Shown one piece after another: positions 12,888 through 64,000 of a DNA stretch of 64,000 nucleotides (within the stretch, counting starts at the first letter, position 1; every line of letters starts with the position of its first letter). The position numbers were made by a program, and so were the translations under genes. The stretch is taken from contig OZ244160.1 of NCBI GenBank assembly GCA_965216325.1, positions 2,720,001 to 2,784,000 on the forward strand, in the 5' to 3' direction. The DNA is from Coraliomargarita sp. (GTDB taxonomy: Bacteria; Verrucomicrobiota; Verrucomicrobiia; Opitutales; Coraliomargaritaceae). Under the pieces are notes generated by a model. That model did not search any database. It was not told where the DNA came from and was given only the letters and a program-made list of their open reading frames with translations.

Positions 12888-12955
12888 TTTGTAGGGGCTC
12901 TGTTTGCGGAGCCCGCCGTTAGAGAATGCAGGGGCGTCGCAAGCAACGCCCCTGC
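12888..12955. repeat. GTAG-type REP doublet, family A (empty homologue of the site occupied by IS copy 2)
   Basis: TTTGTAGGGGCTCTGTTTGCGGAGCCC plus inverted GGGGCGTCGCAAGCAACGCCCCTGC; similar to 61375-61381 joined to 62858-62930. Confidence 0.75.
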
Positions 12956-12966
12956 GACTGAAGTTT

Positions 12967-26486: not shown

Positions 26487-26539
26487 GCTCCCCTGCTTGG
26501 TGAGGAGGGGTGGCTCGCGAATGCGAGACGGGGTGGTGC
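26487..26539. repeat. Palindromic repeat, family B (empty homologue of the site occupied by IS copy 1)
   Basis: Reverse complement matches 49403-49469 joined to 51005-51012. Confidence 0.8.
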
Positions 26540-26541
26540 GA

Positions 26542-26610
26542 TTCTTAATCTTACTCCTAATCTCCAGTGACTCAGAGGATTAAGATTAAGAGTAGGATTA
26601 GGATTAAGAG
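26542..26610. repeat. Hexamer tandem inverted repeat (TCTTAA/TCCTAA ... GATTAA/GATTAG)
   Basis: Same pattern at 28473, 39843 and 54900. Confidence 0.75.
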
Positions 26611-26628
26611 GCAGCCCTATGGGCTGGA

Positions 26629-28472: not shown

Positions 28473-28559
28473 CTCGTAATCTTAATCCTACTCTTACTCC
28501 TAATCTCACGTCTGGTAGAGATTATGATTAGGATTAAGAGTAGGATTAGGAGTAGGATT
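28473..28559. repeat. Hexamer tandem inverted repeat
   Basis: ctcgtaatcttaatcctactc... / ...gattaggattaagagtagg. Confidence 0.75.
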
Positions 28560-28569
28560 CAGATGGCTT

Positions 28570-28807
28570 GAATGGCACTACCTTAAGAGCATTTCACTTT
28601 CGGATGGATTGGTAGGGCAGTCTCGCTGAGGCTGCCGTTCGCTAAGATGCCGTGAACTACAATTGGTTCAGGATGGCAGGTTGATGCTGTCAGCAATCCA
28701 CGTGACATGGGTATTCTGTATTGTTTGCCGAACGGTCGTCTCGGCGAGACGACCCTACCATAAAGAAGCCTTAGAGAACCCAAATTCACCTTAAGGTAGT
28801 GCCATTC
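28570..28807. repeat. Nested REP-like inverted pairs
   Basis: Outer perfect 18-bp IR at 28570-28587/28790-28807; inner GTAG-REP pair at 28611-28640/28730-28759. Confidence 0.75.
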
Positions 28808-29777: not shown

Positions 29778-29854
29778 GGGGGCTTAGCTCAGTTGGTTAG
29801 AGCGCATCCTTGACATGGATGAGGTCGCAGATTCGAATTCTGTAGCTCCCACCA
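29778..29854 (+). tRNA. tRNA-Val(GAC)
   Basis: Cloverleaf: acceptor GGGGGCT/AGCTCCC, anticodon arm CATCC-TTGACAT-GGATG, TTCGAAT loop, CCA end. Confidence 0.97.
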
Positions 29855-29860
29855 TTTTTT

Positions 29861-29984: not shown

Positions 29985-30009
29985 TCGAATTCTGTAGCTC
30001 CCACCATTT
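29985..30009 (+). repeat. Direct repeat of the tRNA-Val 3' end
   Basis: TCGAATTCTGTAGCTCCCACCATTT identical to 29833-29857. Confidence 0.9.
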
Positions 30010-30051: not shown

Positions 30052-30119
30052 CGTAGAACAGGCGTCTCGCCTGTTTCCATCGATACATTGAATGACACAG
30101 GCGAGACGCCTGTGCTACG
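30052..30119. repeat. GTAG-type REP doublet (REPIN-like)
   Basis: CGTAGAACAGGCGTCTCGCCTGT ... ACAGGCGAGACGCCTGTGCTACG. Confidence 0.8.
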
Positions 30120-39779: not shown

Positions 39780-39842
39780 CTGAGATTGCAAAATGTGAAG
39801 CTGCAGTCACTGTGCGAGCCGAAAAATACGCGTGGCGAATGC

Positions 39843-39955
39843 CTCTTAATCGTAATCCTACTCTTAATCTTAATCGATTAAGTGCAACTGTCCGACAGCT
39901 GAGATTAGGATTACCCTTTGGTGAACTCAGGGCGGGAGAGTACGATTAAGAGCAA
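39843..39955. repeat. Hexamer tandem inverted repeat interrupted by a 20-bp motif
   Basis: ctcttaatcgtaatcctactc... / gagattaggattac[cctttggtgaactcagggc]...gtacgattaagagc. Confidence 0.7.
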
Positions 39956-45760: not shown

Positions 45761-46108
45761 TTGGGCCGTTTGGCTGAGTGTCGAGTTTTTGAGGTTTTGT
45801 TTGCTTTGGGCGCTTTGCGGGTCGCTTGAATCCTGTATTTGTAGAGTTCTAATGTTTTTAAGCTAAGTGAGGTTGCGTGTGGGCTTCAAGTTCTGATTCC
45901 GGAAAATGATGCACTCAAATGGACTAACGATGTCTGAGTGCATGTTATCACTTTTTACTGCTTTGAGTTGTCGGAGTCTTAACTTGATGCAGGAGAGCTG
46001 CTTAGGTCTGTTTTTAAACGTTTTTTGTGTGTTTTGTTCCCGGCTAATCGTGAACCTAACGCATTTAGTGACTTGATTGTGGTGAAAATAAGTGCACTAT
46101 TTGTGTGT

Positions 46109-47437
46109 ATGAAAACGATCCATTTTCCGAGGTGGGCAGAGGTGCTGGATAGCTGTGATCTTGATGGTCCGAAGCGCGAATCGTATAAGGTGACGATTCG
46201 CTGGTATTTAAGTTGGTGTGCTAAGCGGCATGTAGGTTGTTTGGTTGAATCGGCGCGTGCGTTTGTGGGGTGGGCGATTCAGGAGAAGGACCCGAAGGAT
46301 TGGGTGATTGATCGTTGGAAAGAGGGGATACGCTGGTTTTTTGTCGCAGCGAAGGCGCAGGCTGCTCCAGGGGGCGGAGCGAGTGAGGGGAAGATTGAGG
46401 GTGCGGAGCCGGAGGCTCCTGCGCTACCTAAACTGGAGCGCCGTGATTTGGAAGGGGAAGAGCGGATTGAGGCGGCGAATGACGATGAAAGGCGGATTCT
46501 TTCGGTAATGCGTCGCTTGGGGCGTGCTTTGAGGACTGAGCGGAATTATCTGGGTTGGTATCGTGATTTCGCTCGGCGATCGGGGTTGGCGGATGGTTTT
46601 GCGATATCGGCGGCGCAGATTAAGGAATATTTGGATTATTTGGCGATGGAGCGTGCGGTGTCGTCCTCGACGCAGAAGCAGGCGCTCAATGCTTTGGTCT
46701 TCATTGCGCGGGAGGTGTTTGAGTTGGAGTTGGGCGATATCGGTGACTTTGTCCGGGCGAAGAATCGGAAGCGTATCCCGGTGGTCATGAGTAAGGACGA
46801 GACACGAGTATTCTTTAAAAAATTAAAAGGTGAGCGGCTGTTGATGGCTCAGTTGCAGTATGCGGCTGGTTTACGTGTTTCGGAACTGTGCCGTTTGCGC
46901 ATTCAGGATTTGGATTTGGACAGGCATCAGGTGGTTGTGCGCAGTGGTAAGGGTCGAAAGGATCGGGTCGCTCCGCTCTCTGTGAAGTTGATTGAGGCCT
47001 TAACGGGGCATTTGGAGACGGTGCATGCGCTTTTTGAGGAGGACTTGAAGCGTTTGGATCTTGCTGGGGTGTATTTGCCAGAGGCCTTGGCGCGCCGTCA
47101 TTCTAATGCGGGACATGATTGGCGCTGGCAGTGGCTGTGGCCAAGTCGTGAGGTCTCTGAAGATCCACGGGAATCTGGCGCTCGGCGTCGGCACCATGTT
47201 TTGTCGAATTCCTACCAGCGCAGTGTTGCGTCGGCGGGACGGGCTGCTGGTTTGACCAAGCGTATTACCAGTCACACCTTGCGGCACAGTTTCGCCACGC
47301 ACTTGTTGGAGGATGGTGTGGATATTCGCACGGTGCAGGACTTGCTCGGACATAAGAGTGTCGAGACGACCCAGATTTATTTGCACGTGATGCAGAAGCC
47401 GGGGGCTGGAGTGCGCAGCCCGCTGGATACCCTTTGA
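46109..47437 (+). CDS. intI: Integron integrase with extra N-terminal domain
   Basis: [32 protein letters not shown]; IntI-specific insert [23 protein letters not shown]. Confidence 0.95.
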
Positions 47438-47820: not shown

Positions 47821-49296
<1,476 letters not shown>

Positions 49297-49343
49297 GTTA
49301 AAATTTTTTATGCGAGTTATCTTCTTCGTGTAAAGTTGTTGGG

Positions 49344-49378
49344 ACCGCGCTCTGCGTTTACGTGGGGCGCGGTTTTTT
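49344..49378 (+). terminator. Terminator after the nitrate transporter
   Basis: ACCGCGC..GCGCGGT plus T-run. Confidence 0.6.
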
Positions 49379-49523
49379 GTGTGGAAATGAAAGTGGCTGG
49401 AGGCACCACCCCGTCTCGCATTGCGCCTTCGACGGGCTCAGGGCTGGCGAGCCACCCCTCCTCGTCAAGATGACATGGGAGGAGTTGCCAGCGGTGAGTA
49501 ATCACTAAGCTAGCACTCCAGCC

Positions 49524-50678
49524 ATGAAGAATACGAAATCACTCACTCCCACATCAGATAAACAGACTGAAGCGAAAGCGGATGTCCTCAAGCTTGGAAT
49601 CGACGTGCACAAGCGGCAATACGTTGTCGTGGCTCAGTTTGATAATCAGTCTCCGAAGACTCCACAGCGGTTTAGTCCTGAGGCATTTTTGGTTTGGATC
49701 AGCAAGCAGCGTGCCTACGCACAGCGTATTGTGACATGCTACGAAGCGGGCTGTTTCGGTTACGTGTTGCATCGGAGGTTGGAATCGATGGGCATCGAGA
49801 ACTTGGTCGTGCGTCCGCGTAACTGGGATGAGTATGGCTCGAAGGTGAAGACCGATGCCCGTGATGCGACCGAGCTTTGCAGCCATCTTGATCGTTATCT
49901 GGCGGGCAATGAGCGTGCTTTAAGTGTGGTTCGAGTTCCGAGCGAAGAACAGGAGCGTTCACGTAGTTTGAGCCGACAGCGCGACACCTTATCCAAAGAG
50001 CTCAAGCGCTTGCAGAACGTAGGAACCAGCAATGCCCGCTATTACGGTTATGAACTGAAAACAACTTGGTGGAAGCAGAACAACTTCAAGGAGTTGCTGC
50101 GTGAGTTGCCTGAGTATCTACTGGAGATCTTGCGCCCATTTCAGGCGATCTTAGCGAGCATCGATAAACAGTTCCGTGAAGTCACCGCACGCGAAGAGCG
50201 CAGAGCAAACCGCAAACTACCCGTTGGTCTGGGAGCACTCACAGCCTCGATTCTGGACAATGAGTTTCGTGACTACAGTCGCTTCAAAAACCGTGGCCAA
50301 GTCGCGAGCTATACGGGGCTGTGCCCGAGTGAATCTTCCAGTGGCGGCTCGCGCAAACAGGGTAGTATTAATAAACATGGCAATCCTCGTGTACGCCATA
50401 CTCTGATCGAGGCGATTTGGCGCTTTCTTCAGCACCAACCCGATTACGATCCGATCAAAGACTGGAGGAAGCGTATGTGCAATGAGCCCTTTAGTGCAGC
50501 TAAGAAAAAGAAAATGACTGTAGCTATCGCACGTCGATTTGCCGTGGACTGGTGGCGAATCAATACAGGGCAAATAGAGCCTGAAGCAGTCGGCTTGAAG
50601 GTGGACTATCCGAGCGCCTATGCAACGCGTGCTTTGCGTGAAGGCCGGATCGTCAAAATCCATGCGAAAGGAGCTTAA
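49524..50678 (+). CDS. IS110 family DEDD recombinase/transposase
   Basis: GIDVHK, YEAG, KTDARDA; C-terminal SYTGLCPSESSSGG..GN. Confidence 0.95.
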   Translation: MKNTKSLTPTSDKQTEAKADVLKLGIDVHKRQYVVVAQFDNQSPKTPQRFSPEAFLVWISKQRAYAQRIVTCYEAGCFGYVLHRRLESMGIENLVVRPRNWDEYGSKVKTDARDATELCSHLDRYLAGNERALSVVRVPSEEQERSRSLSRQRDTLSKELKRLQNVGTSNARYYGYELKTTWWKQNNFKELLRELPEYLLEILRPFQAILASIDKQFREVTAREERRANRKLPVGLGALTASILDNEFRDYSRFKNRGQVASYTGLCPSESSSGGSRKQGSINKHGNPRVRHTLIEAIWRFLQHQPDYDPIKDWRKRMCNEPFSAAKKKKMTVAIARRFAVDWWRINTGQIEPEAVGLKVDYPSAYATRALREGRIVKIHAKGA

Positions 50679-50700
50679 CAACTGATTTTTATGTAATTTG

Positions 50701-50860
50701 GAACGTTGGCTTGCGCGGCTCCCCTCCTGGTTCTTTGAAGAACCGATACCAAGATTGCGCGGCCTTTGTTCCTCTTGCCGATTGAATAGATCAACTTGCA
50801 CTGCTGAGAACAGGCACGTGCGGATAGCAGGTTATGCCCGGCAGTTTGCCGAATGCATCA
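50701..50860 (+). ncRNA. Putative bridge/seekRNA of IS copy 1
   Basis: Two internal-loop hairpins with target guides CTCCCCTCCT/ACCAAG and donor guides TCAACT/ATAGCAG; boundaries approximate. Confidence 0.8.
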
Positions 50861-51078
50861 ACAGAGGAAACGTTTCAAATGAATGATCTTAAAATGGGGG
50901 CTCATTGCCGCCCCCAAGCCCCCGCTAGGGGAACAGAATCGAAAGTAGATATATCCATGCATTAACAAAATTACGAAACCGCTTGACGATATCTCCCATA
51001 GCAGGAGGGGAGTTTTGGGCTCTGCGTTTACGTGGGGGTGTCCTTGCGCTGCATTGAGTTGTCTGGCTTTGCGGGCCT

Positions 51079-51155
51079 GTGCGGAGCCGGAGGCTCCTGC
51101 GCTACCTCTTGGTTGGGGGGGGGGGCGGGTGGCAATGGCGGAGCATTGCCCTCCA
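51079..51155. repeat. REP cluster (GTAG- and GGAG-type units)
   Basis: 51079-51107 identical to 46401-46429; 51131-51155 similar to 37110-37135. Confidence 0.75.
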
Positions 51156-51204
51156 TTTCTAATTTGAAGTTTTCCTCCTGTTGCATCGTTGGGATTTTTG
51201 GTTC

Positions 51205-52953
51205 ATGAGTTCGTCTATGCATATTCAAAATCGGTTTTCAGTGCGTTATGGCCAAGCCTCAGAGGCGGGTGTCAAAGAGCGTAATGAGGACTGTTTGGGA
51301 ATTACGATTCCGGAGGGTGATATGCTCGGCACGAAGGGCATCGTGGTGGTTTTGGCCGATGGGGTCTCGGCTGCGGAGGCTGGTGGCGAGGCTGCGGAGA
51401 TGTGCGTGCGCAGTTTTATTAATGACTACTATAGCACGCCAGAAACCTGGCAGGTGAAGACTGCCGGGCACCGTGTGTTGGTGGCGATTAATCGCTGGCT
51501 CTTCAGTAAGGGGCAGGCCTTTTCGGAGGCGCATAAGGGCTATGTCTGTGCGATGAGTGCGATGGTGCTCAAGTCGCGCTCGGCGCATATTTTTCACGTA
51601 GGTGATGCGCGGATTTATCGTTTGCGCGATGGGCAGTTGGAGCAGTTGACGGATGATCACCGCACCTGGGTGTCGGAAAAGACCAGCTATTTGGCGCGCG
51701 CGATGGGCTTGGGCACGAGTCTGGATGTGGACTATCGCAAGGTGCCGATTCAGCCGGGGGATCATTTGTTGCTCTGCACGGATGGGGTGCATGAGCATGT
51801 GCCGGAGAAGGAGCTGCGGCGCTTTGTGGATTTTGCCGCGGAGGATTTGGATGGCGCGTGTGCGAAGATTGTGGCGCAGGCTTTGGCTGAAGGCAGCACG
51901 GATAATGTGAGTTGTCAGCTCTTGGCGGTCGATTCGCTGGCGGACGTAAAGGCGAATCAGGTATATGAGGAGCTGGGGCGTTTGCCGTTTCCGCCGCCTT
52001 TGGAGGTCGGTATGGTCTTGGATGGCTATGCGGTGGAGCGTGTGCTGGATGAGAGTGCTCGTTCGCAGCTGTATCTGGTGAGGGACGTGGAGAGTGGTGA
52101 GCGCGCGGTGATGAAGACTCCGGCGGAGCGCTTCAGTGATGATGCGGCCTACATTGAGCGCTTTCTGATGGAGGAATGGGTCGGGCGGCGCATTTCAAAT
52201 TCACGCTTGGTGAAGGTGGTGGAGAAGCGCCGTGTGCCACAGTTTTTGTTCTATTTGATGGAGCATGTCGAGGGGCGCACCTTAGCGAAGTGGATCGAGG
52301 AGAATCCGCAGCCGGAGATGGGTGCGGTGATTCATTTGATCGAGCAGGTGATTGGTGGGGTGCGTGCTCTGCATCGCAAGGAGACGCTGCATCAGGATTT
52401 GAAGCCGGATAATATTATCCTCGATTGCAATGAGCAGGTGAAAATTATTGATTACGGTTCGGCTTATGTGGCGGGGATCAATGAGGCGGAGGTTCCCTTC
52501 GAGCGCCGGGTGGATTTGGGCACGCGTTGCTATTCGGCGCCCGAGTATGTGCTCAATCGCCGACCGACGACGCGCTCGGATTTGTTTTCGATTGGTGTGA
52601 TTGCCTATCAGTTGTTTACGGGCAGTAAGGGGCATCCCTATGGTGAGGCTTGGACGCGTGCGCAGACGGTGGGGGACTTTTCGAAGCTCAAGTATGTGTC
52701 GGCACTGCAGCACAACCCCATGGTGCCGGGCTGGATCGACGGGGCTTTGCGCAAGGCGGTCAGCGTGTCGCCTGAGGGGCGCTATCCGGTGCTGTCGGAG
52801 TTTTTGGCGGATCTGCAGGCGCCGAATCCGGAGTTTTTGAGTGTGGAAGATGGGCCGCTGATTCGTCGCAACCCGCTGCTGTTTTGGCGCGGGCTTGTGG
52901 TCGTACAGGCGGTCATCATTCTGATTTTAGCGATCCTGGTCGGCGCAGATTGA
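51205..52953 (+). CDS. Bifunctional PP2C phosphatase / Ser-Thr kinase
   Basis: NED, ADGVS, HVGDAR, TDGV, DN; kinase [18 protein letters not shown]-terminal TM. Confidence 0.92.
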
Positions 52954-53084
52954 GCTGAGGCAGTTGTGTAAGTGTTTTTGAATCAGGTGCCTTTGCGGAC
53001 TTTGTGGGACGCTGCTTGTCCATGAGCGAAATCGATGGATTCGATTAAAACACGGATTTGCATTAATTTGGACATCTGCGCGGA

Positions 53085-53101
53085 TTGGCATGACATGGGC
53101 T
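53085..53101 (+). promoter_or_regulatory. Putative sigma54 promoter (-24/-12)
   Basis: TTGGCATGACATGGGCT, GG-N10-GC, 30 bp before nirA; resembles 47746-47762. Confidence 0.6.
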
Positions 53102-53130
53102 GAAGTTATGGCCAATTGCAGGCAGATGTT

Positions 53131-54873
53131 ATGAGCACCGCTTTTTCTTCAGATCAAAAACAATACCTAGAGGGTTTCTTCGCCGGAGTGAACCAGCGCG
53201 GCGGCATGCCCTTTCTCGGGCAGAACGCGTCCGGGCAGTTTACCAATAGCCCCGCGGAAGCCGTCGAGGAGACGGTTTATGGCACGCCGATTGAGGACCT
53301 CTGCAAGGAGGAGCTGATCAAACACGAGCAGAACGGGCTGGATGTGTGGGACACGATGGTGGCCAATGCGGAGCAGGATGTATTTCCCGCCGCGGACGAT
53401 ATGTTCCGCTATAAGTTTCACGGCTTGTTTCATGTAAAGCCGGCACAGGATTCGTTTATGCTACGTTGCCGTATCGCCGGTGGTGCGTTGAAGTCGCATC
53501 AGCTCGTCGGTTTGGCTGAGATCGCAGACGATTGGGGGGGCGGCTACGCCGATCTGACCACTCGAAATAATTTTCAGGTCCGTGAGATTCTGCCGCGTAA
53601 CACCGTGAGTGTGTTGACGAAGTTGGTCGATCTTGGGCTGACTGCGCGTGGTTCGGGTGCCGACAATCTGCGCAATATTACCGCGAGCCCAACAAGTGGC
53701 TTCGACCCGCAGGAAGTTTTGGATGTGATGCCGTATGCCAAGGCGATGCACCACTACATCATGCACAATCGCGACCTCTACGGTCTGCCGCGTAAGTTTA
53801 ACATCGCCTTCGACAGCGGCGGTCGTGTCTCATCCTGTGCGGATACCAATGACATCGGTTTCTTTGCTGTGCGTGTGGGCGAAGGGCAGGGCGTTGAGCC
53901 GGGAATCTATTTCCGTGTGCAGCTCTGTGGGATTACCGGCCACAAGCAGTTTGCGTCGGATTGCGGTTTGTTGATCAAGCCGGATCAGGCGGTGGCTGTG
54001 GCTGCGGCAATGGTGCGTGTCTTTATCGAGAATGGTGACCGCACCAACCGCAAGAAGGCGCGTCTGAAGTATTTGGTCGATGACTGGGGCGTTGAAAAGT
54101 ATCTTGAAGAGACGCAGAAGAAGCTCGCGTTTGATCTGGGGCGTCTGCCGCTGGAGGCGTGCGAGCTGGCTACTGCGCCCGTGAAGCATGGCCACGTGGG
54201 GGTCTACAATGAGAAGACCGAAGGTTTGAATTACATTGGCGTGGTGATTCCGGTGGGGCGTATGCTGCCGGATCAAATGAAGGCGATCGCGAAGCTTGCG
54301 GATCGATACGGTCGCGGTGAAGTGCGCCTGACCGCTTGGCAGAATCTGTTGATCCCGGGGATCCAGGATGCCGACCTTGAGGCGGTGAAGGCGGCGATTC
54401 TCGAAATTGGGTTTAACTATAGCTCGACCACGATATCAGGTGGTTTGATTGCGTGCACGGGTAATGTTGGTTGCAAGTTCGCATCTGCCGATACCAAGGG
54501 ACATGCTCTGAAGCTTGCGAAGTATCTTGAGGAAGTCATCGAGTTGGATCAGCCGATCAACATTCACGTGACCGGATGCCATCACTCCTGTGCCCAGCAT
54601 TACATTGGTGATATTGGCCTGATCTCCTGCAAGGTGAAGATCGACGGTGAAAGCCACGAAGGCTACAGCGTGGTGCTCGGTGGCGGTTGTGATGATGCGC
54701 AGGCGATCGCCCACGAAGTCTTTCCCGGCACCGCCTTTGAGGATCTGAAGCCACTGATTCTGAATGTGCTCCGCACCTATCAGGAGAAGCGGGAAAATCA
54801 GGAAACCTTCTGGCAGTTTACCCGACGTCATACTGCGGACGAATTGAAAGCGCTCTTCGCGGTTGCTGCTTAA
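53131..54873 (+). CDS. nirA: Siroheme nitrite reductase, NirA family
   Basis: [30 protein letters not shown]. Confidence 0.92.
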
Positions 54874-54899
54874 CCAGAGACTTCAGTCGATGAACCGAT

Positions 54900-54988
54900 C
54901 TCTTAGTCATAATCCTAATCTTAATCGTAATCTCCTACGTATGCTTGGCACTGAGAGATTAAGACTAGGATAACGATTACGATTAAGA
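54900..54988. repeat. Hexamer tandem inverted repeat
   Basis: cataatcctaatcttaatcgtaatctc / gagattaagactaggataacgattacgattaag. Confidence 0.7.
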
Positions 54989-55000
54989 CTTTTTGGATAT

Positions 55001-56587
<1,587 letters not shown>

Positions 56588-56655
56588 CGATAACGAATCG
56601 TCAGTATGTGCTTATGAGAGATTTAAACTCAGACAATAGATTCACCATACACAAC

Positions 56656-56715
56656 GAAAGTGCCTTCGCACTTCCGCTACACGTAAAGGCTGTAGAGGAA
56701 CTGCGAAGCAGTTTC
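56656..56715. repeat. GTAG-type REP pair in divergent orientation
   Basis: GAAAGTGCCTTCGCACTTCCGCTACA / TGTAGAGGAACTGCGAAGCAGTTTC. Confidence 0.65.
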
Positions 56716-56760
56716 TTCTGCGGTGGGCAGAGCTAACAGTGCAATATTCAGTTTACGATC

Positions 56761-58968
56761 ATGTCTCCAATTGAATTCATCAAAGGCCAATTACGTTTAC
56801 GCGCCCGTGATGGTGTTTTGACCGAGCGTCTTGTTCAGGAACCTGCAGCCTATGGCTTAGGTCGCGTGCCTTCGTCAACCAAGCCGGATGCAACGGTGGA
56901 CAGTGTCTGCGGTTTTTGCGCGACCGGCTGCTCGTTGAAGGTGCACCTGAATGATGGGCAGGCGGTGAATCTCTCGGCCAATACCAAGTACCCGGTGAAT
57001 CTGGGCATGGCTTGCCCGAAGGGCTGGGAGGCTTTGACACCCTTGACTGCTTCGGATCGCGCGACCACGCCGATGCTCAAAGGTGCGGACGGTCAGTTAC
57101 ACCCAGTGAGCTGGGATGAAGCGATGGATGCCTTCGTTGGTAAGTTTAAGGACATCCAATCGCTGAATGGTCCCGAGTCGGTAGCGTTTATTAGCACTGG
57201 CCAGATTGTGGCTGAAGAGATGGCCTTCCTTGGTTCGCTGGCGAAATTCGGCATGGGTGTCGTGCATGGTGATGGCAATACCCGTCAATGCATGGCAACT
57301 GCGGTGGTTTCCTATAAGCAGTCCTTTGGCTACGATGCGCCACCGTATACCTATCAGGATTTTGAAGAGTCGGATGTGTTGTTCTTTGTCGGGGCTAACC
57401 CATGTATCGCACACCCGATTATGTGGCAGCGCGTGATGCGCAATCAGCGTAACCCGGAGATCATTGTGGTCGATCCGCGTAAGACGGAAACGGCGATGGC
57501 GGCGACGCGTCACTTGCCAATTAAGCCGAAATCCGACCTTGTTTTGTTCTATGGATTGGCCGCGCGCGTGGTGGAACTTGGTTTGATTGATCAGGCTTTC
57601 ATTGATGCCCACACCAACGAGTTTGAAGCCTTCAAGTTGTTTCTGCGTGACTACGATTTGGAGCGTGCTGCGGAAGAGAGCGGCATCGATCTGAAGGAGC
57701 TCGACGAGATCGCGCACCTGATCGGCTCGGGCAAGCGTGTGTCCTTCTGGTGGACGATGGGCGTCAACCAGAGTTACGAAGGCGTGCGTCTGGCGCAGTC
57801 GATGATCAACCTTGCCTTGATGACCGGTAATATCGGTAAGCCGGGCACGGGGGCGAATTCGATTACGGGGCAGTGCAATGCGATGGGCTCGCGCTTGTTT
57901 AGTAATACGACTGGTCTGCTAGGCGGACGTGATTTTACTTCGGCGGCCGATCGTCACGAAGTGGCCGAGTTGCTGGATATTCCGGTCGAGGTGATTCCAG
58001 ATCAGAACAGTCTTTCATACTATGAGATCATCGACGCGATTGATCGCGGCGAGATTAAGGGGCTCTGGATGATCGCGACCAACACCGCGCACTCCTGGAT
58101 CAATCAGAAGCGTTTCCGCAAGATTCGTGAGAAGTTGGATTTCCTCGTGGTGCAGGACATGTATCACACCACAGACTCCGCGCAAATCGCCGACCTTGTG
58201 CTACCAGCGGCAGGCTGGGGCGAGAAGGACGGTGTCTTCATTAATTCGGAGCGTCGTATTGGCCGCACGCGCAAGGTGCGCAAGGCACCGGGGGAAGCGC
58301 TTTCCGACTTCAATATCTTCCGCCTGATCGCGCACCATTGGGGCTGCGCCGATCTATTCAAGCAGTGGGATACTCCTGAGAATGTGTTCAAGTTGCTCAC
58401 TCGCGTGAGCAAGGGCATGCCATGCGATATCTCAGGTATTGAAGGCTATGACCACTTGGATCGTGAAGGAGGCATTCAATGGCCCTATCCGGATACGGTG
58501 AATGGACCTGTCGAGAAGCAGCGCCGCCTGTTTGAGGACGGTAAGTTCTTCCATGCCGATGGGCGTGCCAAGTTCCTCTTCGAAGCACCGCGCCCGATGC
58601 CGGAGCCGCCGAACGAGGACTATCCCTACATTCTTTTGACCGGCCGTGGCACTTCTTCGCAGTGGCACACACAGACCCGCACCGGCAAGTCTGATGTGTT
58701 GCGCAAACTGTATCCAGAAAACCCTTACGTAGAGATCAATCCGCAGGACGCCGAGCGCTTGGAAATTCGTCCGAACCACAAGGTGCGCGTGCGCTCCCGT
58801 CGTGGGGAAGTCGAAGTGACTGCCGTGCTACTCTCCAGTGTGCAACCGGGCCAACTGTTTATGTCGATGCACTACGATGTAACGAACCACTTAACTGCGG
58901 ACGCCTTTGATCCATATTCCAAGCAGCCTTCGTTCAAGGCCTGCGCAGTTACAATTGAGGCCGTCTAG
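56761..58968 (+). CDS. nasA: Assimilatory nitrate reductase catalytic subunit (NasA/NarB-like)
   Basis: [52 protein letters not shown]; no Tat signal. Confidence 0.9.
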
Positions 58969-59009
58969 GCCGCTGTTTTCGAACTCAACTTTTCAAAGAA
59001 AGGACTCAC

Positions 59010-60746
59010 ATGTCAGCACCATACATTCCAGATAACGCTCCGTTTTCGGAGGATCAACGTTCATGGCTCAATGGCTTTTTGGCCGGGCTCTATTCAAACG
59101 CACCGGGCGAGGGCGGCGCAGCTACTGCGGTCGCGGCCACTCCGGTAACTGTGTTGTTTGGCTCTCAAACCGGCACTTCCGAGGCCCTGGCGAAGAAGGC
59201 GGGCAAGCAATTGAAGGCGGCGAACTGTGATCCGAAGATCGTCGATATGGGAGACTTCTCTGTCGAGGATATGAGGGACTGTCAAAACGTGTTGATCGTC
59301 ACCAGCACCTACGGTGAGGGTGAGCCACCTGACAATGCCGCGAGCTTGCATGGTGCCTTGATGGCTGAAGGAGCGCCTAGCATGGCGGGTGTGAACTACT
59401 CTGTGCTTGGTCTGGGTGATTCGAACTATCCGGACTTCTGTCAGTGCAGTAAGGAATTTGATGCGCGCTTGGAAGCGCTTGGCGCAAGCCGTGTCGCACC
59501 GATGGTCGAGTGCGATGGTGATCCGGATGATTTGTTCCCTAGCTGGTTGGAGTCGGTTCAATCGGTTCTTGGTGAAGCTGGTGCGGCGCCTGCGGTCCTT
59601 GAAGACGATGCCGACGAAGAAGCAGGATCTGCTTTTGATAAGAAGAATCCATTTCCAGCAAAGCTGTTGAAGACTGAAAACCTCAATAAGGAGGGTTCTT
59701 CCAAGGCGACGCACCATGTGGAAATTTCGCTTGATGGCTCCGGCTTGGATTATGAGGTCGGTGATGCCCTGGGTGTGTATCCAGAAAACAAGGTTGCGTC
59801 GATTTTTGAAATCACCGGTGCGGCTGGGCTACTGCCGAGTGAAGAAGTGACCTTGCCCGATGGTAGCACGGTGAACCTGATGGAGGCGCTGCGTTTCCAC
59901 TATGACATTTGCGGTTTGCCAGAAGCATTCCTGAAGGCCTGCGCACGCCTGACCAAGAATGAAGAGTTGCAGGCAATCGTCGCGGATGAGACCCAGATCA
60001 AAGCATACAGCAATGGCCGCGGAGTTGTGGATCCGATTGTTGACTTTGAGGTGAAATTTCCGACTGCGGAGTATTTTGTCGCGAGCTTGAAGCCGCTGCA
60101 GCCACGACTTTACTCCATCTCATCCAGTCCGAAGGCACATCCGGGGGAGGTGCATTTGACGGTGGGGAAGGTGAGCTATGAGACGCATGGTCGCCAGCGT
60201 GGGGGTGTGTGCTCTACCTTCCTTGCTGAGCATACGACCGTGTCTCCGGTGAAGGTTTACTTGCACGCTAACAAGGCGTTCCGTTTGACCGAGAACAATG
60301 ATGCGCCGGCTATCATGATTGGTCCGGGCACGGGTATCGCGCCGTTCCGCGCCTTCCTCGAAGAGCGTGAAGCGCGTGGTGCGCAGGGCAAGAACTGGTT
60401 GCTGTTTGGTGACCAGCACATGGCGACGGATTTTCTTTACGAAGAACAGATCACTGCGTGGATGAAGAGCGGTTTGCTGACCCGCTTCGATACCGCGTTC
60501 TCGCGTGACCAGGCGGAGAAGATCTATGTGCAGGATCGTATTCGTGAGCATGCTGACGAGTTCTACGCATGGCTGGAAGAGGGGGGGCACATCTACATCT
60601 GTGGTGATGCCTCGCGCATGGCTAAGGATGTGGACAAGGCGATCCACAAGGCGGTCGAACTCGCCGGTGGAAAGTCCGAAGAGGATGCGAAGGCCTACGT
60701 GGAAGCGCTGAAGAAGGAAAAACGCTACCTGCGCGACGTCTACTAA
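59010..60746 (+). CDS. CysJ-like diflavin (FMN/FAD/NADPH) reductase
   Basis: GSQTGT, STYGEGEPP, RLYSISS, GPGTGIAPFR, YICGDA, RDVY. Confidence 0.92.
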   Translation: MSAPYIPDNAPFSEDQRSWLNGFLAGLYSNAPGEGGAATAVAATPVTVLFGSQTGTSEALAKKAGKQLKAANCDPKIVDMGDFSVEDMRDCQNVLIVTSTYGEGEPPDNAASLHGALMAEGAPSMAGVNYSVLGLGDSNYPDFCQCSKEFDARLEALGASRVAPMVECDGDPDDLFPSWLESVQSVLGEAGAAPAVLEDDADEEAGSAFDKKNPFPAKLLKTENLNKEGSSKATHHVEISLDGSGLDYEVGDALGVYPENKVASIFEITGAAGLLPSEEVTLPDGSTVNLMEALRFHYDICGLPEAFLKACARLTKNEELQAIVADETQIKAYSNGRGVVDPIVDFEVKFPTAEYFVASLKPLQPRLYSISSSPKAHPGEVHLTVGKVSYETHGRQRGGVCSTFLAEHTTVSPVKVYLHANKAFRLTENNDAPAIMIGPGTGIAPFRAFLEEREARGAQGKNWLLFGDQHMATDFLYEEQITAWMKSGLLTRFDTAFSRDQAEKIYVQDRIREHADEFYAWLEEGGHIYICGDASRMAKDVDKAIHKAVELAGGKSEEDAKAYVEALKKEKRYLRDVY

Positions 60747-60778
60747 GTGTAGCACAGCTGCATTTAGTGAATTGTTGT

Positions 60779-60844
60779 TGGAGAGACACCGTCCTCGGTG
60801 TCCAGTTAGGCTTAGTTCTGGACGACGGGGACGCCGTCCCTCCA
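60779..60844. repeat. GGAG-type REP doublet
   Basis: TGGAGAGACACCGTCCTCGGTGTCC / GGACGACGGGGACGCCGTCCCTCCA. Confidence 0.7.
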
Positions 60845-61017
60845 TTTTTCTGATATCGAATAACTAGAGCGAGTTGTCTCGACTGGATTCTGTGCGGACG
60901 GCTGTCTCGGCCCTTCGATAGACTTAGGGCGGCGAGCATGTCAAATGCGCGAGACAGCCCTACCTTTGACGAGAATCCTGCTTGCCTTTTGTTGCGTGGA
61001 CTGGACTGTGCGGCGCT

Positions 61018-61314
61018 ATGAAGAAAACATTTCAGTTCGCGCATCCGAAGATTAAGCCTGAGCGCATGGTGGAAGCCATCAAGGGTGAGGTGACCAAGTA
61101 TCTCAGACGGGAGCGGAAGAAGACTTTGCCGGATGGCATCGATTTCTGGGATTTTGACTGCAAGTTCGGTCCGGACGCTCAATCGGCGGTCGAGGTGCAT
61201 GTTGCCGAGTTGCCGAAGCGTATTGATGCGGCATCGGCGGAAGGCTTGGCTGAGTGCTACATCGAGATTTTGGCGAAGCCAGCCAAGCGCACAAAGAAGC
61301 CAGCGGAAGTGTAG
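61018..61314 (+). CDS. Conserved hypothetical protein (DUF6172-like)
   Basis: MKKTF..KY.RRERKK.LP.G.DFWDFDCKFG..YIEILAKP. Confidence 0.8.
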   Translation: MKKTFQFAHPKIKPERMVEAIKGEVTKYLRRERKKTLPDGIDFWDFDCKFGPDAQSAVEVHVAELPKRIDAASAEGLAECYIEILAKPAKRTKKPAEV

Positions 61315-61430
61315 AAGTGGCCTTGTCCACAGGGGCGATGCGTCGCGAGTCGAGCGAGCATTGTCAGGCGATTATTTGTAGATGACATGGGCGTTTATCA
61401 GGAGCACGGAAGTGCTATGATGATAAACTT

Positions 61431-62519
61431 ATGCAAAACCCCACATCATCTACACGGACAACTAAGAACGCACTGGGCACAGTAATCAAGCTTGGCATTG
61501 ACGTGCATGCGAGCACCTACGTGGTGGTCATGAAGATCGATAGCAGCGCCCCTTCACGCGCGAAGCGCATGAAGCCTGATATCTTCCTTCGATGGATTAA
61601 GCAGCTGAGCACTCAGTGCGAGCAGTTGCAAAGTTGCTACGAGGCCGGTCCTTTTGGTTACAGCCTGCACCGCAAGCTCAAGGCGATGGGCGTGAACAAC
61701 CACGTAATCCGCCCGATCAACTGGGACACTCATGGTAAGAAGGTAAAGACCGACGCGCGTGATGCGTTGCAAATGGTCTTGAGTCTGGACGGCTATCTGC
61801 GGGGCAATGACCGCAGCTTCAGTGTCGTGCGTGTGCCCAGCGAGCAAGAAGAGCGTCACCGCAGCCTAACCCGGCAGCGTGAAAGCTTCGTCAAAGAACG
61901 TGGCCGTGCGGCCAAGCGTGGTAAGAGTCTGGGACTGTATTACGATCAACCCTTACCCAGCGGCTGGTGGAAGCCGCGCAAATGGATGCAGCTACTCGAA
62001 CAGCTCGACGATTTTTTGATCAGCCTGCTGGAGCCACTGCGGTTAAACTGCCTGCACTTTAGCGAGCTAATCAGCAACATCGAAGAACGTATCGAAGCGC
62101 TCGAGCCGGAACGGGTGCTGCCTAAAGGCATGGGGGTGGTCCTCTATGAACAGATCGAACGTGAGGTCTGCAACTGGAAGCGATTCAACAACCGCAAGGC
62201 GGTCAGTTCCTTTACCGGACTGTGCCCAAGCGAAGACACTAGTGCAAATCGGCGTTTCCAGGGCTCGATCAACAAACACGGCAGTCCCCGCCTGCGGCAT
62301 ATGCTACAAGAGTGCGCCTGGTTATTGATCCGGTGGAATCCCGGCTACAGTGGGGTGCGTAAATGGCAGGCCAAGCTCAGCGACGAGACCACCAGTAAGG
62401 CGACCCGCAAGAAAATTGCCGTGGCCATCGCCCGGCAGTTCGCCGTGGACTGGTGGCGCATACGCACTGGCCAATGCAGTCTCGAAGACTTCGGACTGAT
62501 AAGCAGACAAAACCCATAA
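61431..62519 (+). CDS. IS110 family DEDD recombinase/transposase
   Basis: GIDVHA, YEAG, KTDARDA, FTGLCPSE; divergent paralogue of 49524-50678. Confidence 0.95.
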   Translation: MQNPTSSTRTTKNALGTVIKLGIDVHASTYVVVMKIDSSAPSRAKRMKPDIFLRWIKQLSTQCEQLQSCYEAGPFGYSLHRKLKAMGVNNHVIRPINWDTHGKKVKTDARDALQMVLSLDGYLRGNDRSFSVVRVPSEQEERHRSLTRQRESFVKERGRAAKRGKSLGLYYDQPLPSGWWKPRKWMQLLEQLDDFLISLLEPLRLNCLHFSELISNIEERIEALEPERVLPKGMGVVLYEQIEREVCNWKRFNNRKAVSSFTGLCPSEDTSANRRFQGSINKHGSPRLRHMLQECAWLLIRWNPGYSGVRKWQAKLSDETTSKATRKKIAVAIARQFAVDWWRIRTGQCSLEDFGLISRQNP

Positions 62520-62583
62520 GTCCGAACCAACGCTAAAGGCCTTCACCCTCTGATTTTAACGTTCTTTTGCAGTTTTCCTTTGT

Positions 62584-62760
62584 GCGGAGTGAGTCTGACC
62601 AAGCCCCTGTTGCCAACACAACGATTTTGTAGAATAGGCCACTTCGCCACCAAGCTTTTGAATGACCCAATGGATAGGTCATAGTGTGCTCTTCTGAGAA
62701 ACACTCAGAAACACGGATAGCAGGTTATCCCGGATCATCGAAACTCCGAGGCCATGCGCG
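62584..62760 (+). ncRNA. Putative bridge/seekRNA of IS copy 2
   Basis: Target guides AAGCCCCT/TTTGTAG, donor guides GTCAT/ATAGCAG, same layout as copy 1; boundaries approximate. Confidence 0.8.
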
Positions 62761-62857
62761 GTGGACGCTCAAAGACGATTGCAATCAAAACAAACCACTT
62801 ATCTTATGTAAAAACACTCACACGCTTCTACACTCTTGACAGAAACGAACATAGCAG

Positions 62858-62930
62858 GGGCTTCGCTTGCGGAGCCCGCTTCTGGAAGGAGGATTCTCTG
62901 TGTGACGGGCTTCGCAAGCAAAGCTCCTGC
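62858..62930. repeat. Family A REP doublet interrupted by IS copy 2
   Basis: GGGCTTCGCTTGCGGAGCCCG / CGGGCTTCGCAAGCAAAGCTCCTGC. Confidence 0.75.
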
Positions 62931-62990
62931 GTTTTCTAGTCAAATTAGGGCTCGTATCCCGTGTCCTGATTGGCGTATCCCATTGGGCAC

Positions 62991-64000
62991 ATGAAATTTT
63001 CCCAAGTCGCAATTGAATCCATCGCTTATGCGTTGCCGGACGAGGTGTGGACCTCGGCGGACGTGGAGGCGAAATTGGCGTCTGTTTACGAGCGTCTTCG
63101 TTTGCCCGAAGGTCGTCTGGAGTTGATGACCGGCATCAAGGAACGTCGCTTCTGGCCTGCGGGCACCCCAGCGTCGGTGGCATCGGCTAAGGCAGGCGAG
63201 GCAGTGCTGGCGAAATCGTCCTTCAAGCGCGAGCAGATGGACTTGTTGATTCATTCTGCGGTCTGCCGTGACCGCTTAGAGCCGGCGACGGCTTCATATG
63301 TGCACGGCTTGCTTGGCCTTTCGGGAGGCACGCAGATCTTTGATGTGTCGAATGCCTGCCTTGGTTTTTTGAATGCGATGGTGATTGCGGCGAGCATGAT
63401 CGAGAGCGGTCAAATCGAGCGCGCGCTGATTTGCTCAGGCGAGAATGGTCGTCCATTAGTGGAGAATACGCTGCAGCAATTGCAGAATCCGGAGCTGACC
63501 CGTAAGACGATCAAGCCGTATTTCGCCAATCTGACCATTGGTGGTGGTGCCGTTGCGGCGGTCTTGTGTCGCAAGGACTTGGCTCCTGTATCCAGCCCGC
63601 AACTACATGCGGCAGTGGTGGAGACGGATACCTCGCACAATGAGTTGTGCCAAGGGGACTCCGCTGGGGATGCCTTGGAGATGTTGACCGACTCGGAAGA
63701 ATTGCTGGTCGCGGGTATTGGTGTGGCCACCCGCGCATGGGCCCGCTTCACCGAAGCGACTGGTTGGACCGCTGAAACGCCGGACCGTGTGATTACACAT
63801 CAGGTTGGTAAGGCGCACACGCGTGAGTTGTTCAATGCATTGAATTTAGATCTGGAAAAAGACTACGCGACTTTCGAGACGCTGGGGAATGTGGGCTCGG
63901 TTTCCTGCCCGATTACCTTGGCACGTGCGATCGAAGATGGTGCCTATGGGCCAGGACAGAAGGCTGCCTTGCTGGGCATCGGCAGTGGTTTGAGTAGTTT
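62991..64000 (+). CDS. oleA: 3-oxoacyl-ACP synthase III, OleA-like (3'-truncated by window edge)
   Basis: Not in ORF track; reads MKFSQVAIESI..RLELMTGIKERRFW..LEPATA..FDVSNACLGF..THQVG..GNVGS..LLGIGSG. Confidence 0.8.
   Translation, partial: MKFSQVAIESIAYALPDEVWTSADVEAKLASVYERLRLPEGRLELMTGIKERRFWPAGTPASVASAKAGEAVLAKSSFKREQMDLLIHSAVCRDRLEPATASYVHGLLGLSGGTQIFDVSNACLGFLNAMVIAASMIESGQIERALICSGENGRPLVENTLQQLQNPELTRKTIKPYFANLTIGGGAVAAVLCRKDLAPVSSPQLHAAVVETDTSHNELCQGDSAGDALEMLTDSEELLVAGIGVATRAWARFTEATGWTAETPDRVITHQVGKAHTRELFNALNLDLEKDYATFETLGNVGSVSCPITLARAIEDGAYGPGQKAALLGIGSGLSS

Follow-up and report, generated by a model that had tools for sequence, protein, structure and literature searches.

Targeting of REP sequences by insertion sequences is said to have been reported early on, by Choi et al. 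(2003), Tobes and Pareja (2006) and Ramos-Gonzalez et al. (2006). Elements of the IS1111 type are described as having a long non-coding region downstream of the transposase gene, which gives rise to a transposase-bound seekRNA (Siddiquee et al. 2024, PMC11187229). According to the same description, a match to the target's top strand lies 5' of a match to the bottom strand in this RNA, the two matches overlapping in the target, and one element, ISPa11, targets the REPs of P. aeruginosa. For 93% of IS1111 elements, a bridge RNA was predicted within the right end, and the donor-binding bases of many members were placed within a multi-loop (Durrant et al. 2024, PMC11208160). Another reported hallmark of the group is the presence of subterminal inverted repeats of 7-17 bp (PMC11208160, PMC11187229).

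The window studied here, i.e. the whole stretch of 64,000 nucleotides analysed from a Coraliomargarita genome (Verrucomicrobiota, Opitutales), contains an element resembling these systems, hereafter W2, and a second one of the same type, W1. On our analysis, positions 62584-62647 very probably constitute the target-reading loop of a guide RNA, and W2 would be an IS1111-type element inserting into one particular REP. Among the matches listed in a literature search on IS110, Verrucomicrobia and REP, no paper described W2.

Element W2 and its transposase

W2 was assigned to family IS110 and, on the basis of its downstream non-coding region, its subterminal repeats and the order of its putative guides, to type IS1111. 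Its general organization is as follows.

61382-62855, + strand: IS1111-type insertion sequence W2, 1474 bp between two AG cores
61382-61402, + strand: left end, including ATGGGCGTTT of the subterminal inverted repeat (from 61387)
61431-62519, + strand: transposase gene, 362 amino acids, with a DEDD/RuvC-like domain and a Tnp domain (Pfam matches)
62520-62855, + strand: non-coding region 3' of the transposase gene, 336 nt, proposed source of the bridge/seekRNA
62836-62855, + strand: right end, composed of TTGACA (62836-62841), the subterminal repeat and terminal CATAGC (62850-62855)

Nine full-length copies occurred in the genome (3.06 Mb, one contig); eight were identical and one displayed a single base change. 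This sole divergent copy (G000:C1:2070238-2071711) carried a C to A change at the equivalent of window position 62712, in the stem adjoining the donor guide. The same copy was also alone in having a deviant left flank, AACGAAG.

Non-coding DNA was unevenly distributed within the element, 336 nt lying downstream of the gene for the transposase versus 49 nt upstream (61382-61430). The left end, ATGACATGGG, and the right end, TTGACA...CATAGC, were both common to the relatives of W2, which are designated below by their locus numbers. The subterminal repeat of W2 reads ATGGGCGTTT on the left and ATGTTCGTTT at the right end (reverse complement), with 8 of 10 positions matching. Other elements displayed ATGGGAG (W1), ATGAAGAGTG (L042) or ATGAGG (L040 and L046), each at both ends. 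The letters of the subterminal repeat thus varied among lineages, yet agreed between the two ends of each element.

Contigs from four DNA runs belonging to one study revealed neither a circle-junction joint nor an empty-site joint; their breaks, at 61376-61380 and 62860-62881, are those that a repeat would cause, and they are uninformative on excision. Among RNA runs, none was listed as covering this stretch. No sigma-70-like site emerged from a consensus promoter scan covering 61300-62950, and the four terminator-like sites of the same interval represented no excess over shuffled sequences (1.7 +/- 1.2). By eye, a junction promoter was considered, with TTGACA 14 nt from the right end. Counting the AG core, its -10 box would be TGACAT of the left end, which is a poor match, and this TTGACA doubles as a portion of the subterminal repeat; such a promoter is not put forward here.

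At the protein level, the W2 transposase matched PF02371 (Transposase_20) with 52.9 bits (cut-off 21.3) and PF01548 (DEDD_Tnp_IS110) with 29.2 bits, a borderline score for a cut-off of 29. Against NF033542 ('IS110 family RNA-guided transposase'), it scored 137.8 bits over positions 2-337 of 343, versus a cut-off of 140 that the W1 transposase exceeded with 168.6 bits. Residues D24, E71, D108, D111 and S271 were invariant in the 10 aligned relatives (10/10). Judging from motif and spacing, they presumably correspond to D11, E60, D102, D105 and S241, the catalytic residues described for IS621 (PMC11208158). Searching the PDB with a profile of the aligned relatives retrieved the transposases of ISCro4 (E 1.4e-5) and IS621 (E 0.0037), and phmmer with the single W2 protein gave no PDB match at E 0.01.

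The C-terminal motif distinguished one clade. It reads GLCPSE(D/S)TSA in W2, L031, L032 and L068, with Ser-Ala at residues 271-272 (window region 62241-62243), unlike W1 and most other relatives, which displayed SSG. In the published account of IS1111 elements, this motif is given as GL-P----S(t)G, with TA as an occasional variant (PMC11187229), and in that of IS621 the Gly of Ser-Gly is conserved and bonded to D102 (PMC11208158). The W2 clade nevertheless reaches, with Ser-Ala, nine near-identical copies in the W2 genome.

Insertion sites and the putative target-binding loop

The features of the proposed target and of the loop that would read it are listed below.

12888-12917, + strand: empty target REP in the window, TTTGTAGGGGCTCTGTTTGCGGAGCCCGCC, with a single AG, beginning TTTGTAGGGGCTC...
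61375-61381, + strand: left half of the target, TTTGT and core AG (61380-61381), identical to 62626-62632
62856-62879, + strand: right half of the target, core AG (62856-62857) followed by the REP hairpin GGGCTTCGC-TT-GCGGAGCCC and GC
62584-62647, + strand: putative target-binding stem-loop, outer stem 62584-62591 / 62640-62647
62601-62608, + strand: candidate 5' guide AAGCCCCT, the complement of core AG and GGGCTT as read on the top strand
62609-62622, + strand: inner hairpin GTTG-CCAACA-CAAC between the guides (GTTG 62609-62612, CAAC 62619-62622)
62623-62625, + strand: GAT, between the CAAC arm and TTTGTAG
62626-62632, + strand: candidate left guide TTTGTAG, identical to the left flank 61375-61381

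All nine copies of W2 were directly flanked by AG on both sides. Since the empty site, which reads TTTGT-AG-GGGCT, contains a single AG, this dinucleotide was regarded as the core common to donor and target. A previous reading of the window, made from the sequence only, had predicted that further copies would be flanked by TTTGTAG on the left and GGGCT on the right. The nine strings on which that reading relied were all found in place when printed from the sequence, and its prediction held entirely for the right side: AGGGGCTT followed 9 of the 9 copies (62856-62863 in the window copy, where it is the exact reverse complement of AAGCCCCT), none of which had thus a right flank of unrelated sequence. 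On the left, the prediction stood for GTAG, which preceded eight copies (the ninth having GAAG), and failed for the full TTTGTAG, which was confined to the window copy (1/9). TTCGTAG was found next to three copies, and ATTGTAG, GTTGTAG, ACCGTAG, CGCGTAG and AACGAAG next to one copy each.

Elsewhere in the genome, two free sites matched all 13 bases of TTTGTAGGGGCTT. The string GTAGGGGCTT displayed 34 occurrences, versus about 4 expected per strand, and AGGGGCTT alone was recorded 131 times, which is near expectation. A preceding GT was found at 34 of the 122 free AGGGGCTT sites versus 8 of the 9 occupied ones; the corresponding binomial odds (about 3 in 10,000) are a rough figure because the sites are not independent of their REP context. 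Most GTAGGGGCT sites extended into the palindrome GGGCTTTGCTTGCGAAGCCC. As for the occupied sites, the full REP hairpin was present at six of the nine, and the other three diverged after AGGGGCTTTGCT, so that the REP head (approximately the first 12 bases) is alone common to all.

An ORF of 191 amino acids (L061:1411-1986, located at about 1680034-1680609 of G000:C1) matched NF047646, the REP-associated tyrosine transposase (RAYT), with 89.5 bits (cut-off 80). Each side of this ORF is occupied by a doublet, in which the targeted REP is accompanied by a second arm in inverse orientation, GTAGGGGTGTTGC... On this sequence context, we consider the target a true REP, flanking a REP-associated tyrosine transposase gene, and the W2 guide appears to be aimed at the junction of GTAG head and hairpin, in the REP arm that flanks the RAYT gene. 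Of the doublets around the RAYT ORF, the guide fits the first type of REP arm only. In the window, an inverted second REP arm likewise follows the empty REP, which is one base off the guide (12888-12960). Pfam Y1_Tnp gave 16 matches in the genome.

The outer stem of the putative loop is formed by GCGGAGTG (62584-62591) and CACTTCGC (62640-62647), with eight pairs including one G-T. It is lengthened by 62593-62597 / 62635-62639 in the minimum free energy (MFE) fold and is backed by two-sided changes among relatives. In the MFE fold of 62570-62775, AAGCCCCT and TTTGTAG are the two sides of one internal loop, which extends from the outer stem to the GTTG/CAAC hairpin; at the position of this inner hairpin, relatives displayed a hairpin of other sequence. 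The fold energy of 62570-62775 was no better than that of shuffled sequences (z = -0.55). Rfam 15 gave no match (E up to 1) in window positions 49000-64000, and its library may be devoid of an IS1111 bridge-RNA model. In W2, the top-strand match precedes the bottom-strand match (5' to 3'), and the published IS1111 seekRNAs were reported to have the same order of guides (PMC11187229).

Three explanations other than RNA guidance were weighed. In the first one, the transposase would recognise the REP itself, through the shape of the hairpin or through its sequence, and the internal strings would have no targeting role. It draws on the six sites with a full hairpin, at which shape and sequence are inseparable within the W2 genome, and on the looseness of the left guide, TTTGTAG being exact at one site out of nine and one copy lying in AACGAAG. 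We judge it improbable, as three of the nine sites share only about the first 12 bases, as relatives with similar proteins are inserted in different flanks with matching loop letters (see below), and as a reprogrammed RNA moves the target in published IS1111 members (PMC11187229). The second explanation makes the internal strings a captured or left-over fragment of a REP, in other words a recombination scar devoid of guide function, which would account for the presence of AAGCCCCT within the reverse-complemented REP head. It appears very unlikely given that the identity to the REP ends after 8 bases and no REP hairpin follows, that the two halves occur in the wrong order and in opposite senses for a REP copy, and that relatives display the same arrangement with other targets. 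Finally, the strings are short and might match the flanks by chance, 119 of 20,000 random sequences with the first-order composition of the 336-nt non-coding region containing the 8-mer and 283 the 7-mer, but none of them contained both at the observed order and distance and the relation holds in more than 10 relatives, so that chance, rejected by permutation and simulation, retains hardly any credit.

Putative guides and flanks of W1 and of other relatives

The reading of 62584-62647 as a target-binding loop implies a comparison with related elements, the nearest of which lies in the same window.

49470-51002, + strand: W1 ('copy 1'), another IS of this type, distinct from W2, with its transposase at 49524-50678
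50720-50728, + strand: candidate 5' guide of W1, TCCCCTCCT
50749-50753, + strand: second candidate guide of W1, CCAAG
50824-50830, + strand: candidate donor guide of W1, ATAGCAG

The sequence-only reading had presented W1 as another copy of the same IS, with the same layout, an unrelated guide and a different REP as its target. W1 is instead a distinct element, present once in the genome, and the two transposases share 46% identity. The common layout with unrelated guide letters was confirmed, and was found again in relatives from other genomes. W1 is inserted between CCCCTCCTCGTCA-AG and GAGGGGAG, with a match of 10 bases between its right flank and its 5' guide TCCCCTCCT. The claim of a different target was also borne out, since the palindrome in which W1 sits, CCCCTCCT-N-AGGAGGGG, belongs to a separate repeat family that counts 21 genomic sites.

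Several other repeats were recorded in the window. An exact 29-nt direct repeat occurs at 46401-46429 and 51079-51107, 4678 bases apart; the second copy directly follows W1 and the first lies inside an ORF (46025-47437) that is tyrosine recombinase-like by eye. Repeat families of 33-37 nt, with GATTAAG / GATTAGG-like units in both orientations, were found at 26530-26614, 28473-28574, 39840-39875 and 54900-54993. An exact 25-nt direct repeat (29833-29857 and 29985-30009, 152 bases apart) is adjoined by a 33-nt inverted repeat with a 2-nt spacer (30052-30119).

The transposase was encountered in 18 of the 401 same-order genomes searched, its own genome included, and a scan of genome contigs provided 20 relative loci from Opitutales and other Verrucomicrobiota. 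These relatives share the left end (AG followed by ATGACATG), the right end (TTGACA...CATAGC followed by AG), a block CGGATAGCAGGTT in the non-coding region and the first stem-loop of the layout seen in the window. The consensus fold contained 18 predicted pairs, 12 of which displayed changes on both sides. As read from single-sequence folds, 16 of 18 elements presented the succession of stem, internal loop and hairpin; L032 and L042 folded otherwise.

The letters on the 5' side of the first loop followed the right flank of each element. The longest matches were 10 bases for L031 and W1, 9 for L033, 8 for W2, L037, L038 and L042, 7 for L032, 6 for L034 and L040, and 5 for L046. Similar correspondences between guide and flank were noted by eye for L068 (TGACTCCT vs AGGAGTCA) and for the Synoicihabitans copies L064, L071 and L072 (TGACCCCT vs AGGGGTCA), L078 being deviant. 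L031, a 72%-identical relative from another genus, has GTAG and AGGGGCTTCA as flanks, i.e. the same target as W2, in agreement with the flanks that had been predicted for related genomes.

An unanchored matrix of longest matches showed background values of 5-6 and some high ones off the diagonal, such as the 9 bases shared by the W2 non-coding region and the L034 flank via GAATGACCC in the second loop; for this reason, an anchored test was used. On the right side, nine elements totalled 64 identities versus 46.7 +/- 4.7 under permutation, a value reached by 105 of 100,000 shuffles; on the left side, eight elements totalled 43 versus 35.2 +/- 3.5, reached by 1,925 of 100,000, and both counts overstate independence because the relatives are kin and several have a common target. 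Misalignment of L041 kept it out of the right-side test, and elements whose flanks were cut were excluded. The alignment register was off by one in L032 and L034, which lowered the diagonal. Among the relatives, the left-side signal was weak, with 2 contiguous bases in L038 and 4 in W1.

Right-side pairing in L034 and L046 would need a bulged A next to the core. Where ...CCCT would fit the target, the 5' guides of these two elements, which represent separate lineages, read ...CCCAT, with one additional A beside the core complement. The targets of L034 and L037, AGGG(G)TCATTCC, are located just upstream of ORFs that by eye begin like RAYT/IS200-type proteins, with a YH(I/V)INRGN motif.

Proposed donor loop and mechanism, and known systems

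Two segments of the second loop are candidates for reading the ends of the element.

62678-62682, + strand: GTCAT, possible 5' donor guide noted by eye, complementary to left-end bases 1-5 (ATGAC)
62717-62723, + strand: ATAGCAG, proposed donor guide on the 3' side of the second loop, identical to the final 5 nt of the right end followed by core AG

The block GGATAGCAGGTT around the proposed donor guide was invariant in 12 of 12 aligned relatives, and most relatives therefore cannot test this guide. In two distant ones it shifted with the right end: L042 ends in CATACC and has GATACCAG in its non-coding region, and L046 ends in CATAGG and has GGATAGGAGG. L033 was an exception, with a right end CATAGA versus an unchanged ATAGCAG. 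For the 5' half of the donor loop, the complement of AG plus ATGACAT was looked for and not found; only GTCAT (W2 clade) or TCA..CT (W1 clade) fit the left end. The TCA within GTCAT was invariant in the alignment, and the expected complement of the core was absent.

In the mechanism that we propose, an RNA would be derived from the 336-nt region 3' of the transposase gene, probably as part of the same transcript, and would be bound by the DEDD transposase. AAGCCCCT would pair with the top strand over AG plus GGGCTT, and UUUGUAG with the bottom strand over TTTGT plus AG. The two pairings would overlap at the AG core, where strand exchange between the target and the circular IS would take place. 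The element would thereby enter the REP head in a single orientation, between GT-AG and GGGCTT, and would then be flanked by AG at either end, and ATAGCAG of the second loop would read the right IS end and the core in the donor. That such an RNA is made, processed and bound, and that it is the RNA and not the protein alone that picks the site, we infer from the published systems.

After insertion, the hairpin is preceded by GCAG from the IS end and no longer by GTAG. Work on TnpA-REP of E. coli reportedly indicated that RAYT needs GTAG next to the hairpin; if so, each insertion would disable one REP. The idea that W2 competes with the REP/RAYT system, beyond the passive use of a safe site, is nevertheless a speculation to which we give little weight. 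A smaller conjecture is that the U-rich left guide could pair through G-U with the C or T encountered left of GTAG, in which case one RNA would reach most REP copies.

With an empty site, nine occupied sites and natural retargeted relatives, W2 would stand as a clear instance, with several copies, of IS1111 targeting by an RNA guide in Verrucomicrobiota. These sites and relatives might further be used as a small set on which to test guide-target rules, namely the AG core, an 8-nt right guide and a tolerant, U-rich left guide. The mechanism itself, the preference of this IS family for REPs and natural re-direction were already documented in the published accounts (PMC11187229, PMC11208160, PMC12288879), and the W2 case opens no new question, appearing as an ordinary member of a mechanism published in 2024.

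IS621 has a single RNA with a target loop and a donor loop, comparable to those predicted for W2, and resembles W2 by a core dinucleotide in donor and target, as well as by a DEDD plus Ser active site and a REP target (PMC11208160; Hiraizumi et al. 2024, PMC11208158). It differs in that its RNA is located upstream, in the left end, its bottom-strand match is 5', and its core is CT instead of AG (PMC11208160). As described there, it is also without long subterminal repeats, and its protein is related to that of W2 at the profile level only (E 0.0037). The best relative of solved structure by profile was the ISCro4 transposase (PDB 9t56), in which GID, CxEA, KTDxxDA and GLxP....SG align; it is distant from W2, as the phmmer search with the single protein gave no match at E 0.01. 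ISPpu9 and ISPpu10 of Pseudomonas putida share with W2 a fixed position in the REP and a conserved AG at both ends, but are described as IS110 group elements, with a bridge RNA upstream of the transposase gene and another REP family as target (PMC12288879).

ISEc11 and ISXne4 are reported to illustrate natural re-direction, since relatives with about 72% protein identity keep the stems and the target bases vary with the flanks (PMC11187229). A comparable re-direction appeared here when W2 was set against relatives of 58-65% identity, namely L032, L068 and the Synoicihabitans copies; unlike in the ISEc11 / ISXne4 case, the 72%-identical L031 shares the target of W2 and re-direction was seen only at greater distance. 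ISPa11 of Pseudomonas aeruginosa displays, as described in its published account, the same succession of a DEDD transposase gene and a non-coding region, a REP target and a top-strand match in 5' position. W2 is likened to it by that description, its own RNA being predicted, and differs from it by its host, which belongs to Verrucomicrobiota (Opitutales), and by the sequence of the REP that it targets.
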